Virus record (IMG/VR): IMGVR_UViG_3300036770_001537
Strand: one strand, 5' to 3'
DNA: 64,000 nt
Source: a virus
Position numbers and translations under genes: made by a program. The first letter of the stretch is position 1, and each line of letters starts with the position of its first letter. Below are positions 8,786-29,745 of this stretch, piece by piece. The notes under the pieces were generated by a model. That model made no database searches. It saw only the letters and a list, made by a program, of their open reading frames with translations, and was not told where the DNA came from.

Positions 8786-8814
8786 ATTATAGCACATGAT
8801 ATTGGGGATGTCAA
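8786..8814 (-). promoter_or_regulatory. sigma70-type early promoter
   Basis: TTGACA-17-TATAAT followed by ACTACAGAAT, shared with the next two promoters. Confidence 0.8.
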
Positions 8815-9716
8815 GCCCCAATATCAAAACTTTTTGTGCCACCAAAATGTCGAGCACATGCCTCAAACGAATAACCACGCTGATTACTGAGAATACGGCA
8901 CTCTCCGATTGGATAATCTACCGTATGATGCGTGTGTCCATGAATCCAGAACTTGATATTAGGAGAATCCAGAATCACAGAAGACAAGTCTGAAGCATAT
9001 GCTCCATTCAAATCATCAGTGCCATAAATTCCTCCAGAAACATGAACTGGATCGATAGACTTGAAACTTGGTGCATGATGAGTGAGAACAACTACTGGAA
9101 GATCAGTATCGTTTGCCTTCTCGTAGATATAAGAAACAGACTCCAGATGAACATCCAATATAAACTGAGGATTGATCTTTCGGTTATGCCTACGATTGAA
9201 ATAGTTCATGTCCGCAACAGTATGAAGACCAATCATGTTATAATCATTCATTCCACGCTCAACAATCTCCATTGTTAGTGGATTACCCTTCTTATAATCA
9301 GTCCATAGAGTTGCACCAATAAACCGAACACCATCAAAATCTAGATAATCATTCTCCATTACCATGATATTATTGAACTTGTTGTTAGTCAAGAATGTCT
9401 TGATATCAGGAATAGTATTCTTGTAAATGGAAGAGTAATGCTCATGGTTGCCCATTACATACAGAACCTGTCGATACTTGGAAATAAACTCCTTGAATGG
9501 ACCGTTCAACCACTTCTTAATCTTCTTTGAATCTGCATCAGTACGATGTGGAGCAACCATATTGGCAGTAAAGATATCACCTGCCAAAATAAGAACATCT
9601 CCACCCTGATCATCATGAAGATTAGGATAGTTCAAAAACTCTGCGTGAAGCTAAAGGTCGGAGACATAGCTAACTTTTAGCTTCTTATCTCCGACCAACC
9701 TCCTTCCTTTATCCAT
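8811..9716 (-). CDS. metallophosphoesterase with an in-frame TAG inside motif I (candidate stop-hop, or pseudogene)
   Basis: MDKGRRLVGDKKLKVSYVSDL-TAG-LHAEFLNYP..., then LAGDI, GNHEHY, THHAPS, HGHTH. Confidence 0.8.
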
Positions 9717-9748
9717 AATGTTTCCTTTCATTACTATGTCCTTTCTTG

Positions 9749-9787
9749 ATTCTGTAGTATTGTACCACAAAATCTAATTGGTGTCAA
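9749..9787 (-). promoter_or_regulatory. early promoter, 39-nt direct repeat copy 1
   Basis: TTGACA-17-TACAAT; identical to 10115-10153. Confidence 0.85.
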
Positions 9788-10134
9788 GGCCAAACTTGAT
9801 GTGCCCATATTATTTTTGAATTGGTCTTTTCATATTCTTCTACTAATTGTTCTAATGTGTAGACAGTTTCAGTTTTGAAATTCCATAACCATTGAGAAAA
9901 CCCTAAGAAACTTAGACCATCCATAATAGGCAGTAATATTTCCATTCCATATGGTTCATTTGTACCATAAACATCTATTCTACCACCACCCCATGATTCA
10001 GTTATGACATTTCGTCCATTTTCATTTTTGACTAGACCTCTTTTTTCAAACCATTCAAAATTTATTGGTCCCATAAAATTAGCATGATATGTTATCATCA
10101 CACACCCTTTCTCTATTCTGTAGTATTGTACCAC
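9784..10134 (-). CDS. hypothetical protein (true start probably MITYHANF)
   Basis: ORF between the two identical promoters. Confidence 0.65.
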   Translation of the reverse strand: MVQYYRIEKGCVMITYHANFMGPINFEWFEKRGLVKNENGRNVITESWGGGRIDVYGTNEPYGMEILLPIMDGLSFLGFSQWLWNFKTETVYTLEQLVEEYEKTNSKIIWAHQVWP

Positions 10135-10153
10135 AAAATCTAATTGGTGTCAA
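10115..10153 (-). promoter_or_regulatory. early promoter, 39-nt direct repeat copy 2
   Basis: identical to 9749-9787. Confidence 0.85.
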
Positions 10154-10362
10154 TTACTTTTTTCAAATTCTTCCAAAGTTCCTTTATGAAAATGTGTAAC
10201 CCTGTTTCCACAATTTTCACAATACCAAGGAACACCCAATTCTTGCAATTCTTTTGGATTTAACAGAGAAGATTTCCAATTGCATTTTTTACATTCTAAC
10301 ATTATATAATATATTTTATTTTCTTTCATAAGAAATATCTTTAGAATGCATAAACCTATCAA
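10150..10362 (-). CDS. small zinc-ribbon protein
   Basis: CKKC ... CENC. Confidence 0.6.
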   Translation of the reverse strand: MIGLCILKIFLMKENKIYYIMLECKKCNWKSSLLNPKELQELGVPWYCENCGNRVTHFHKGTLEEFEKSN

Positions 10363-10819
10363 AAATAGTAATTACATGCTTATCAGTTATTCCAGTTTTC
10401 AAATCAACATTCACCAAATGTGGTCCACATCTTAATGGAATATCATCAACGACAATCCATTTACAAACCACATTCTGTGGAACATTGTTCATCAACCAAT
10501 CTCTAATTGCATATAATCTATCATCAATAACAGATGGAAACTTTGTTTTATAATTTGGATGAATTAACTCTGGATTTAGACCGTTTTTAATAGCACAATT
10601 TTTAACATCAATTACCCCTTGATTGTCATTGTGGGCAGTATTAAACACAATTTGAATTTTTTGTGGCGGACAATGCTCGTTCAACTCTTTGATAAACTGT
10701 TTGTCATACACATAAGTCCTATCATCATATCTATCATAACCATATGTGTTCTCTGCTGATCTAACATGAAGTCGTAGAGGAATCAAAGGACCATCAACAT
10801 CAAGAAATAGAATTTTCAT
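10316..10819 (-). CDS. HAD-superfamily protein (RNA-repair-associated HAD type)
   Basis: ILFLDVDGPL, WIVVDD, GIT. Confidence 0.75.
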   Translation of the reverse strand: MKILFLDVDGPLIPLRLHVRSAENTYGYDRYDDRTYVYDKQFIKELNEHCPPQKIQIVFNTAHNDNQGVIDVKNCAIKNGLNPELIHPNYKTKFPSVIDDRLYAIRDWLMNNVPQNVVCKWIVVDDIPLRCGPHLVNVDLKTGITDKHVITIFDRFMHSKDISYERK

Positions 10820-11274
10820 TTTAAATATCTACCTTTTTCTGCAACAGGTGCCATGTTTTTATAACGAACGTCTTCATCAAACTTGACAATATCGATAGTT
10901 TTATCATCTAATGAATATGCAAACCTTCCACCAAAATATACACAAAAAGTTAATGTTACGTTTGAATAGACGATAATTGTATATGCGGATGTAAGTGCCT
11001 GTCCTCCCATTCCTCCAAATCCTAGAGCAGTTGATCCCCATGTTTGAAGGAACATTGTACATACATGTAGTTCATCTGCAAAATGATCTCGTTCATATGT
11101 TTCATATGCAGACTTTTGCCATTTCTTATATTCTGCAATGTTTGCCCTATGACCTTTATATGGTTCGGAGCCAACTTTTCTGCGAGAATCTTTAACCTTT
11201 GGCATATCCCTATATTGTGCGGATGCCAATGCTGAAGTTAGACAGACGATTGGATTATCATTCATTCGAAACAC
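10816..11274 (-). CDS. conserved phage hypothetical protein
   Basis: FLQTWGSTALGFGGMGGQALTSAYT..VYFGGRFAY. Confidence 0.75.
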   Translation of the reverse strand: MFRMNDNPIVCLTSALASAQYRDMPKVKDSRRKVGSEPYKGHRANIAEYKKWQKSAYETYERDHFADELHVCTMFLQTWGSTALGFGGMGGQALTSAYTIIVYSNVTLTFCVYFGGRFAYSLDDKTIDIVKFDEDVRYKNMAPVAEKGRYLK

Positions 11275-11549
11275 TTCCTTTCACGAAACACCACTTTACC
11301 CTGCATTACTCCAAGTGGAGATGATTGTTGATATACAATTTCTTCAAAGGTTTCATTTGGCTTTGCTGATCGATGAGCAAACCAGATAGAATTATCCTGA
11401 TCTTTCCAAGAAGAATGAACGAACTTTCTTCCACATGGAATTTCAATATATGCAGTGCCAAGACCAGTTCTTGCCAACCAGTTTTCACAACCAGCAAGAA
11501 ACATAGCAGATACAGCAGTGATAATAACAAGAGTCTTTTTCATTTTCAA
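11262..11549 (-). CDS. putative lipoprotein
   Basis: signal peptide ending in lipobox LAGC. Confidence 0.7.
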   Translation of the reverse strand: MKMKKTLVIITAVSAMFLAGCENWLARTGLGTAYIEIPCGRKFVHSSWKDQDNSIWFAHRSAKPNETFEEIVYQQSSPLGVMQGKVVFRERKCFE

Positions 11550-12421
11550 GCCCTCACGAACTTTCTATTTGCATCTAGTTTATATGGTACATTAGGTTCA
11601 ATACCATCTTCGCCAACATAAGCAACGGTAATTCTTGGTCTAAAACTATCGTACCATTTGATAGAAAGTGCTGAACCATGTTCACCAGTTATAATTGAAT
11701 CAACACCACCAATTACAGTTGAATCAACACCACCAGTTACAGTTGAACCAGCACCACCAGTTACAGTTGAATAATCACCGCCAGTCACAGTTGAATCAAC
11801 ACCACCAGTTACAGTTGAACCAGCACCACCAGTTACAGTTGAATAATCACCGCCAGTCACAGTTGAATCAACACCACCAATTACAGTTGAATCAACACCA
11901 CCAGTTACAGTTGAATAATCACCGCCAGTCACAGTTGAATCAACACCACCAGTTACAGTTGAACCAGCACCACCAGTTACAGTTGAACGAACACCACCAG
12001 TTACAGTTGAATAATCACCGCCAGTTACAGTTGACCAATTACCACCAGTCACAATTGAATAATCACCACCAATAATAAAAGCACCAACTACTTCGACAGG
12101 ATTGCAGCCAGAGGCAATTAAGAAATCAGTTGCACCTTTTCTATTACCAATAAACAAGGTTTTAGCCTTTGAAGTTTTAATTTTTTCATCAATATCTACG
12201 ATTGGACCTAGTGCGTCACACACCATCCATAAAGCATCATCATTCCAATTTAAATAACCACCATAACCTTTGCCATGAAGAAGGCCATGAAGGCCACCTC
12301 CACATTCTGGTTCTGGATTCCAGTCTGGAGATTCTGTGATTCCACCAATTTCTAGATTCCATTGAAATCTATTATGAGATGTACCATCAGCATTACAAGT
12401 TCTCAAGAATAGATTTTTCAT
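11546..12421 (-). CDS. ice-nucleation-protein-like octapeptide-repeat protein (paralogue 2)
   Basis: N- and C-domains nearly identical to 991-1986; 17 GGxxSTVT-type repeats. Confidence 0.85.
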   Translation of the reverse strand: MKNLFLRTCNADGTSHNRFQWNLEIGGITESPDWNPEPECGGGLHGLLHGKGYGGYLNWNDDALWMVCDALGPIVDIDEKIKTSKAKTLFIGNRKGATDFLIASGCNPVEVVGAFIIGGDYSIVTGGNWSTVTGGDYSTVTGGVRSTVTGGAGSTVTGGVDSTVTGGDYSTVTGGVDSTVIGGVDSTVTGGDYSTVTGGAGSTVTGGVDSTVTGGDYSTVTGGAGSTVTGGVDSTVIGGVDSIITGEHGSALSIKWYDSFRPRITVAYVGEDGIEPNVPYKLDANRKFVRA

Positions 12422-27911: not shown

Positions 27912-29003
27912 GAGAAAAATGCTTCGAGGGATGAAGTTTTTTCCGTCTTCCACCCAATAGAGTCAAGAATAATTTTGAGTGGTTCAACAAACGACTTCTC
28001 GAACTGTATATCATAGTCGATATATTTTGTCAAGTCAAATTCTTCTGGAATAGTTTGTGGGAATGAGATGATATTAGATTTAACGGTATTTGGTTCTTTG
28101 AGATAGATAAATTTGATCTTTTCACCTTCCTTGATAAGTTGATACTTCTTATCCAGCTTTTTCATAGCCACAAGTTTGTTATAAAGTAATGACCCTCTCA
28201 CATGAATGGGTATTCCTTTATCAACCCTGGAATATTTATCTAGTCCATTTACACCTCTTGGAAAAGCAATATCTGCTGGATTCTGCTTTCTAAATTTTGC
28301 CTTGAAATCTTGAATGAAGTCGATAAGTTCTGCCTCACTTTTGTTTAGAATAATATCCAATGCTTCCCATAGTTTATCCTTACACGCGGATGGTGTAGAA
28401 CTCTTAATCATTTCAAGACCCATAACCTTTGGTTCTGGTTTGGCATACTCTACGCCTTCATTATTATACACATTCATAACATATCTTTTCTTGGCAGTCC
28501 AGATACCCTTATCTGCCAAGGCTTCACGCTTCATGATCATCTTTTGAGAATACGCATTAGTATATCTATAAAGTTCATCATAAGAATCGTTAATAAATGG
28601 TTGAATTTTATTTTCGCATACCTTATCCAAGAATGCGATAATCGATTTTGTTGAAGCAGAATGATTCTGTTTTTTAATAGTCTGCCTAACAAGTTCATCA
28701 AATACAATATAAATTGAGTCAGTATCCGATGCAACGATGTAATCCTTATTGCTGTTCAGTATTTTATTTAGGTATTGATTAATTTTCTTTTCAATCCATC
28801 GAATTGACAATTGCCCTGATGTGGTAATTGCTGTTGCCTGACGAATATCATAAAACCTAAAATATTCATTACCAATTGATCCATATGCCGAGTTAAAGAC
28901 ACACCTTTTTAGCCAATTGCAGGTTATTATACCTTGCAATTTTCATTTCAAGAATATGCTTAAGTTCTTCTAATTCACTGTCAGATAAATTTTCTAACTG
29001 CAT
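27908..29003 (-). CDS. 43: DNA polymerase gp43, C-terminal subunit; needs a +1 shift at 28898-28892
   Basis: ATG 29003 MQLENLSDSELEELKHILEMKIARYNNLQLAKKVCL-TAA; +1 frame NSAYG..., ASDTDS, AKKRY. Confidence 0.85.
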
Positions 29004-29745
29004 CAAAACATTTCCCTTTCGTTTTTTTAATCTCTATATCCGTAAATCTAATTATATCATAACCGTGTTGGATTGCAAGTTTATTATATTCTTCATCCAA
29101 CATCTTCTGTTTATCTGTACTATGCCAAAATACTCCATCAAGTTCTATAAGAAGTTTATCTAATACCAAAAAATCATATCTGTGTCCTTCACCATTAATT
29201 TGATATTGTTTAATGAATGATATATTATTTTCTTGGCAAAATTTTTCGAAAGACCTCTCAATCGAGGTTTCTCTTCTATTAAAATTTTTATTATGAATAC
29301 CTGTTACGCCATCGAATGCTAATTGACGAAGAATATCTTTTATTTCCGGTTTCTTCTCATACATCAAAAGAGACGCATCTCTTTTGGACCTTGTATCAAC
29401 ACCAAGTTTTTTCATATATAAAAAAACAGATGATGCACTCATATCATACTTATCAGCAATTTCATATAAATTTAATTTATTATCAATATATTCTTCTTTT
29501 AATGTATCATAATCAAATTTTTGAATGCGATCATGATACTGCTTAGAAGTTTTTGATTTTCCATTTTTACTCACACTAACAAAATGTGACATATTATGCC
29601 TTCTTATGCCGTTATAAATAGCGGCATAAGGCAAACTTAGTGATTTGGAAATCTCACTTACACTGAATCCTTCAATAAGCATTTTTTCAATTTGTTTTAT
29701 GTTCAAATTAACAATTTTGGTGATATGACTATTTTGATTTGGCAT
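28981..29745 (-). CDS. EDxHD/Vsr-like (DUF559) homing endonuclease with N-terminal HTH repeats
   Basis: ETSIE..KQYQI..YDF..IELDGVFWH..D; lies between the two gp43 halves. Confidence 0.8.
   Translation of the reverse strand: MPNQNSHITKIVNLNIKQIEKMLIEGFSVSEISKSLSLPYAAIYNGIRRHNMSHFVSVSKNGKSKTSKQYHDRIQKFDYDTLKEEYIDNKLNLYEIADKYDMSASSVFLYMKKLGVDTRSKRDASLLMYEKKPEIKDILRQLAFDGVTGIHNKNFNRRETSIERSFEKFCQENNISFIKQYQINGEGHRYDFLVLDKLLIELDGVFWHSTDKQKMLDEEYNKLAIQHGYDIIRFTDIEIKKTKGKCFDAVRKFI

Follow-up and report, generated by a model that had tools for sequence, protein, structure and literature searches.

We analysed a 64,000-nt stretch of viral DNA (IMG/VR record IMGVR_UViG_3300036770_001537), which we call the window, and looked closely at a gene on its minus strand for a calcineurin-like metallophosphoesterase (MPE). 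The first catalytic motif of this gene is interrupted by an amber stop between two identical leucine codons, CUU-UAG-CUU. We tentatively read the site as a working stop-hop, in which the ribosome would leave the first CUU, pass over the stop and land on the second. Taken together with a second interrupted gene in the window, the DNA polymerase, we consider it possible, though short of probable, that this is the first natural in-frame stop-hop, aided by a hairpin that refolds where the mRNA exits the ribosome, in a phage that also uses a +1 shift in its polymerase resembling that of release factor 2 (RF2).

Two ATGs lie in frame on the minus strand, at 9731 and 9716 (9716-9714). From the ATG the frame reads MKGNIMDKGRRLVGDKKLKVSYVSDL, 26 codons, up to the TAG at 9653-9651, and then continues as LHAEFLNYPNLHDDQGG... 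for 279 codons to the final TGA. The take-off CTT (9656-9654) and the landing CTT (9650-9648) flank the stop directly, with no further cognate triplet between them, so that the context of motif I is ...KVSYVSD CTT TAG CTT CAC.... A first-pass annotation of this stretch had pointed out that the list of open reading frames (ORFs) starts the enzyme at 9635 without motif I, that in-frame ATGs exist upstream, and that the codons on the two sides of the UAG are the same, and we were able to confirm all of this. Under standard decoding (SDL-stop-LH) there is no D-x-H in motif I, and it is present only when 6 nt are skipped.

The claim that the rest of the gene is intact also held up. The remaining metal-binding motifs are present in the translation (AGDIF, MGNHEH, THHAP and HGHTHH) and are kept in the related proteins P0001-P0006. 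This part of the protein is 86% identical to P0001, and pairwise dN/dS values between the MPE and its orthologues are 0.10-0.16. The downstream part matches PF00149 (Metallophos) with an E value of 2.6e-11 and 44.8 bits (cut-off 21.5), over profile positions 26-190 only; because the match begins at position 26, the motif I region, which lies in the first 25 positions, is left out of it. There is also a match to the metallo-phosphoesterase family phrog_1649 (E 2.9e-47), while a PDB sequence search with P0001 returned no match.

The relatives give a clear picture of what motif I normally looks like. The nearest proteins (P0001-P0004) are 86-70% identical, have 286-288 residues and start with MKVSYVSDLHLEF, MKVAYLSDIHAEF or MKVSYLSDVHAEF. 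Orthologous proteins read SDLHLEF, SDIHAEF or SDVHAEF, and S-D-x-H is found throughout P0001-P0013. We surveyed the related loci and could locate the motif in 85 of 87. All 85 have M-x5-SD-x-H, uninterrupted and without any extension, and none has D-x-x-x-H, which is what readthrough of the stop would produce. The earlier statement that removing exactly 6 nt restores the motif and that readthrough does not is well supported by this survey. We also considered a +1 or -1 shift at CUU-U and rejected both, as only 6 codons are open in the +1 frame and 10 in the -1 frame. Skipping exactly 6 nt brings S-D-x-H back, and neither readthrough nor a +1 or -1 shift would yield an enzyme.

When we aligned the DNA with the contigs of the relatives, we found two in-frame insertions in the window, 21 nt apart. 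The shorter one is 6 nt (CTTTAG, or equivalently TTTAGC) and separates the Asp codon of motif I from its His codon. The longer one is 51 nt; it contains the Shine-Dalgarno-like (SD-like) segment AAGGAAGGAGG (9709-9699) and the entire 5' arm of the hairpin, and where exactly it begins and ends is uncertain by 4 nt, as each end carries AAAG. In two relatives, L084 and L086, the ATG is followed directly by the KVSY codons. Since both insertions are in frame and the 51 nt are free of stops, the frame from the conserved ATG is kept.

We searched for the source of the 51-nt insertion and found no copy elsewhere in the window, none in viral contigs, and nothing alike downstream of the homologues of an inserted 104-aa gene that we describe below. 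An 18-nt piece of the leader gave one chance match, to a GC-rich contig. The exact site pattern had 0 matches in viral contigs, a degenerate pattern of the flanks in metagenome and viral contigs found only the insert-free relatives L086 and L087, and a two-arm hairpin pattern gave 93 hairpins, all of them unrelated.

The hairpin stands immediately 5' of the hop site. Its outer stem, GGUCGGAGAUA paired with UGUCUCCGACC, has 11 bp including one G.U, and a 3x1 internal loop separates it from an inner stem of 6 bp with an AAG triloop (AGCUAA-AAG-UUAGCU). Native coding sequence (S Y V S D) makes up the 3' arm, which closes on the C of the take-off CUU, and the inner hairpin stops 11 nt short of this codon on its 5' side. 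The SD-like segment precedes the hairpin and UUUAGCUU comes after it. Among 31,978 overlapping 45-nt segments of the minus strand, the hairpin ranks first in stability (-24.3, against a mean of -5.2 and a standard deviation of 3.25); some of the next-ranked hairpins are followed by U-runs and resemble intrinsic terminators. The 146-nt region has a fold z-score of -6.0 compared with shuffles, and 75 nt of the matching 5' regions in the orthologues fold at no better than -8 to -10 kcal/mol. With release of the 3' arm, the computed fold energy goes from -7.0 to -25.5 kcal/mol. This is the structure that the first-pass annotation had described. It had further suggested that the loop side of the hairpin can pair with the hop site instead, and there is indeed an exact 9-nt complement, although the resulting helix is weak (-8.8 vs -24.9 kcal/mol for the hairpin). 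We think that GAAGCTAAA, the upstream partner in this pairing, is likely to be the template of the 6-nt insertion, or else one strand of the alternative helix. In the folds, a weak outer extension of six pairs joins the upstream hairpin to AGCUUC.

Table 1. Positions of the features discussed in the text, numbered along the window.
Feature	Position	Strand	Basis or remark
Early-promoter and leader cassette, 48 nt	9740..9787	minus	Sequence elements and repeated copies
Start ATG orthologous to the starts of related MPEs	9729..9731	minus	Alignment with L084: cassette ATG, then AAG GTA TCA (KVSY)
51-nt in-frame insertion, 17 codons (GNIMDKGRRLVGDKKLK), stop-free, after ATG-AAA	9678..9728	minus	Absent from L081-L086
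RNA hairpin	9656..9696	minus	dG -23.1 kcal/mol
GAAGCTAAA (also as GAAGCUAAA)	9676..9684	minus	Exact complement of TTTAGCTTC (also as UUUAGCUUC) at 9655-9647, the hop site
Candidate hop site CTT TAG CTT	9648..9656	minus	Six of nine bases are an insertion relative to the orthologues
Remainder of the MPE, from the motif I His (CAC 9647-9645) to TGA 8813-8811	8811..9647	minus	Intact; GD, GNHE, HH and GHTH retained

If the stop-hop works, we believe that it would proceed as follows. Translation would begin at the conserved ATG of the cassette (9731), or at the one at 9716, and pass through the 17-codon lineage-specific leader, and on the way the ribosome would melt the -23 kcal/mol hairpin. Once CUU 9656-9654 reached the P site, UAG-C would occupy the A site, where termination should be slow, since the phage uses UAG less often than either of the other stops. 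In this pause the peptidyl-tRNA(Leu) would unpair, the mRNA would move by 6 nt and the anticodon would pair again with CUU 9650-9648, so that decoding restarts at CAC and gives ...VSYVSD-L-HAEF..., with D-x-H restored. Zipping of the outer stem with the emerging bases could pull the mRNA forward and prevent it from moving backward. All of the sequence requirements of synthetic stop-hops are present, that is, matched codons around a stop and nine nt for one residue. A full, active product would perhaps depend on this +6 hop as its sole route, which we suggest with some hesitation. We infer that the hop would occur at a useful level, that the hairpin would stimulate it and that selection would maintain it; sequence alone cannot decide either efficiency or selection.

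The second lesion came from an unbiased check, a tblastn comparison of every ORF of a related 126-kb contig (G001) against the window. Of the genes in common with G001, about 45 are collinear and unbroken, and only two are disrupted: the MPE, by one stop, and the DNA polymerase. Part B of the polymerase starts at ATG 29003, reads ...IARYNNLQLAKKVCL and ends at a TAA, and NSAYGSIGNEYF follows in the +1 frame; G001 is continuous here (...IAKYDNLQMAMKIRLNSAYG). The site, which falls within 28885-29003 of the window (minus strand), is AAGGTG-TGT-CTT-TAA-C, and a +1 shift is needed, which joins ...LQLAKKVCL to NSAYGSIGN (motif B). It is located 36 codons past the new start, and the ORF of an HNH/Vsr-like endonuclease (28981-29745), which splits the gene, lies just upstream of it. 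The SD-like AAGGTG derives from conserved K-K-V codons, and we found no significant local structure at the shift site (z -1.4). Contig L283, from a separate Logan assembly (SRR10854513), is 100% identical over 2,732 nt including this site, so the break in the polymerase is not an error.

At both lesions a P-site CUU meets a stop in the A site, with C following. On the coding strand, no CTT-stop site other than these two leads into a long open frame of the register that is needed. The +1 shift is presumably decoded, given that the polymerase is expected to be essential for a T4-type phage and that several data sets yielded assemblies of this genotype. CUU-stop-C recoding is then presumably at work in this phage-host pair, as far as can be judged from the two sites, and a chance origin of the same context at two of two lesions is unlikely.

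Polymerase genes in two relatives have irregularities of their own. In the related viral contig L249 (1033-1174) there is a 71-nt tandem duplication in motif B, with the KISLNSAYGAIG segment present twice and the frame broken; this could be an assembly artefact or another interrupted polymerase. In L209 the frame upstream of motif B is open for 125 codons only, compared with 498 in the other loci, which suggests another split polymerase in a relative.

It is very unlikely that the 6 nt or the hairpin is an artefact of sequencing or assembly. Inverted-repeat chimeras do occur in some library types, and contig L091 (JGI 3300034073) ends 20 nt beyond the TAG. However, L091 is 100% identical to window 9631-12138 (2508 nt) and runs through the leader, the hairpin and CTT TAG CTT, so the sequence is real, and the earlier assertion that a 6-nt insertion is not a typical sequencing error stands. 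The arms of the hairpin are also imperfect (G.U, internal loop), unlike those of a fresh chimera, and only two conserved genes out of about 45 are disrupted, with the polymerase break reproduced in a separate assembly. Exact-protein look-ups found proteins of this genotype in two further sequencing runs; three other exact-protein look-ups for same-strain contigs found nothing. Even less probable is that TAG is decoded as an amino acid, by an alternative code or a suppressor tRNA, giving SDL-X-LHAEF. TAG is a rare stop here, ending 3 of the 87 long ORFs in the window, but it does end those three, and we found no other in-frame TAG with long open frames on both sides in the other coding-strand genes besides gene junctions. 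ARAGORN detected only a tRNA-Met in the window, and the survey of the 85 loci argues in the same direction since the D-x-x-x-H form does not occur. We rejected TAG recoding and a suppressor tRNA on these grounds. An unlikely explanation, although somewhat better than these two, is that the leader ORF and the hairpin form a regulatory device (an attenuator, a processing site or a translational shut-off) with no full enzyme, and that the downstream product starts at UUG 9635 without motif I. The tract after the hairpin, the position about 60 nt downstream of a sigma-70-like promoter, the ability of the AGCUAA arm to pair with either of two UUAGCU copies and the start given in the ORF list would all fit this. 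However, the U-tract is poor as an intrinsic terminator, no relative has such a leader, and a product from UUG 9635 would lack the two metal ligands of motif I as well as the first beta-strand, which leaves 279 codons at a dN/dS of about 0.1 without a purpose.

The explanation that we take most seriously besides the stop-hop, and that is almost as probable, is a plain knockout or strongly reduced-function allele, in which a template switch at a quasi-palindrome put TTTAGC into the D-x-H codons and any hopping is noise. At most, the change would have been favoured through the loss of a nuclease target site. The first-pass annotation had raised a template-switch mutation as its own alternative, and the details suit it well: TTTAGCTTC is the exact complement of GAAGCTAAA in the inner 5' arm, 20 nt upstream, there is microhomology at both junctions (TT and TTC), and the steps of the switch fit, with nascent ...GACCTT pairing with the AA of GCTAAA, copying TAGCTTC and returning on TTC. 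The insert is missing from all relatives, the gene is taken as non-essential, and there is a single clonal genotype (the L091 identity), which fits a recent event. What a knockout leaves over is the 51-nt stop-free leader and the exceptional hairpin, which would be without function, and the CUU-stop-C at both lesions, which would be a coincidence. It also leaves the in-frame length of the 6 nt to chance (1 in 3), and it does not account for the absence of decay in the remainder of the gene or for the recurrence of the genotype across several data sets. A working stop-hop is one hypothesis that covers both insertions, their in-frame lengths, the intact remainder and the shared CUU-stop-C context. 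Several observations weigh against it. A template switch onto GAAGCTAAA makes the matched codons and the stop automatic, with no need for selection. The stop, the leader and the hairpin are in no relative, at up to 86% protein identity, so there is no conservation or covariation evidence for programming. In the polymerase, motif B needs no shift in any of 80 relatives (identity up to 67%), so that lesion is lineage-specific too. The folds contain no take-off stem-loop 3' of the site, just a 4-bp stem, and no homing endonuclease is found next to the MPE, the neighbouring genes having no nuclease match. An unproductive +1 slip at CUU-U would compete with the hop, unassisted stop-hops have been reported at a low level only, and the MPE is probably a dispensable, accessory early gene whose loss may be tolerated. 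The first-pass annotation had proposed a natural minimal bypass; the geometry and the second CUU-stop-C site are in favor of this, and the lack of conservation, with the device in no orthologue, is not. It had also suggested that the TAG and the hairpin be sought in orthologues and had counted their absence as one half of what would speak against a hop. That half is what we found: all orthologues read GAC-NNN-CAC with neither hairpin nor leader. A template switch on the hairpin is the probable origin of the 6 nt, and a later rescue by hopping would be compatible with it.

With 35.6% GC, the window as a whole is AT-rich. Long ORFs, nearly all of them on the minus strand, take up about 91% of its length. 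T4-like and cyanomyovirus-like phages are its relatives, and a DNA search of the INPHARED phage collection gave no match. The cassette upstream of the MPE consists of a -35 element (TTGACA, 9787-9782), a 17-nt spacer, a -10 element (TACAAT, 9764-9759) and then the leader ACTACAGAATCAAGAAAGG, and a predicted stem-loop overlaps the -10. The window has another copy at 10153-10106 (95.8% identical) and a partial copy at 8788-8775, so that the pattern TTGACA, 17 nt, TACAAT, ACTACAGAATC..GAAAGG is repeated ahead of three consecutive genes. Promoter, leader and ATG are the same cassette as at the orthologues in L084 and L086, and the cassette is also found in a further relative, L081. We take it to resemble the promoter-early stem-loop (PeSL) cassettes of T4-type phages. 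Between two of the cassette copies, directly upstream of the MPE, there is a 104-aa gene (window 9784-10098, minus strand) that belongs to phrog_18736, a family without an assigned function. L081 and L084 do not have this gene here, which makes it look like an insertion by recombination between cassettes.

Two further observations came up during this work. One homologue of the MPE, P0013, has an internal 16-residue tandem duplication (YKLIGSQDITDMNYFN twice) in a region that is otherwise conserved. In addition, about 40 AT-rich viral contigs among L103-L191 (for example L103:788-825 and L104:1981-2018) share a near-identical 38-nt element, GGTCGGAGA-N20-TCTCCGACC, whose loop is GGATAAGGGGAGGACAAAAC or the complement of it and whose flanks are conserved. 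This element is structured and is unrelated to the MPE site.

If the stop-hop is true, it would be the first natural in-frame case, as so far there are synthetic constructs only. With a hop of 6 nt and a defined hairpin, the site would offer a minimal and mutable model for peptidyl-tRNA take-off, pairing of the exiting mRNA and landing choice, which are difficult to tease apart in the gene 60 system of phage T4 with its 50-nt gap. It would also affect annotation, because stop-containing inserts in phage catalytic motifs are now called truncated genes or pseudogenes. More broadly, it would mean that a phage-host pair routinely uses slippage of the P-site tRNA on CUU at stops and possibly tolerates small insertions in conserved motifs in this way, and having two CUU-stop-C cassettes in one phage makes the idea testable. 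If the knockout is right, the site is still a clean natural case of a hairpin-templated nonsense insertion.

The site can be compared with several known systems. As in quasi-palindrome mutations, the inserted bases exactly complement a nearby hairpin segment, there is microhomology at both junctions and the relatives have the ancestral form. Such an event accounts for the 6 nt and not for the 51-nt leader with its hairpin, and rescue by hopping would still be compatible with it.

The prfB gene, which encodes RF2, has a programmed +1 frameshift at CUU UGA C. The MPE site shares with it the CUU in the P site, the stop in the A site and the C that follows, and the polymerase site is closer still, with an SD-like AAGGUG, a 3-nt spacer and CUU UAA C. 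At the MPE, in contrast to prfB, a +1 shift is unproductive, there is no SD 3 nt upstream, and a 6-nt move to a non-overlapping codon is required.

In T4 gene 60, ribosomes bypass 50 nt inside a MobA homing-endonuclease element (bioRxiv 10.1101/2022.08.31.505936, 10.1101/2024.12.09.627546). A 5' stem-loop stands 9 nt from the take-off codon there, and pairing of the exiting mRNA has been proposed to drive forward bypassing (bioRxiv 10.1101/2024.12.09.627546). Our site is similar in that it is in a T4-type phage and has a take-off codon that matches the landing codon, with UAG right after take-off. It also has a 5' stem-loop about 10 nt from take-off (9 nt in gene 60 and 11 nt in the MPE), which we infer might act in the same way, and a Lys/Arg-rich N-terminal extension, and in both the insert is in a conserved motif and skipping it restores the protein exactly. 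It differs in that the gap is 6 nt and in frame, not 50 nt, and the MPE lacks both a take-off or A-site stem-loop 3' of take-off and an internal SD placed 6 nt ahead of landing. Its nascent chain has only 26 residues, whereas the KKYK signal of gene 60 is 30 residues from the P site. The leader is basic (7 Lys/Arg) and has no likeness to KKYK-LQNNVRRSIKSSS. Finally, no endonuclease adjoins the MPE, and there are no homologous cassettes in relatives.

The terminase of Streptomyces phage phiHau3 has 10-nt coding gaps, and mass spectrometry supported bypassing in E. coli after the slow codon was changed to a stop (PMC10732093). Unlike the MPE insertion, these gaps alter the frame, start at the rare sense codon UUA and are in an essential gene (PMC10732093).

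The closest comparison is with synthetic stop-hops in E. coli (Weiss, Dunn, Atkins, Gesteland 1987; O'Connor et al. 1989), which in the account given of them in a review had low efficiency and no stimulators (PMC5009743). The first-pass annotation was correct that Leu-stop-Leu hopping is known from synthetic constructs, at least as that account presents it, and the review states that natural occurrences of stop-hopping are unknown (PMC5009743). The MPE site has in common with these constructs that nine nt would be used for one amino acid, with Leu codons around a UAG and a slow A-site codon, and that the in-frame product would be two residues shorter than the product of readthrough. The difference is that the constructs were engineered, whereas the MPE site is natural and is found within a catalytic motif, behind a strong hairpin and a short leader.

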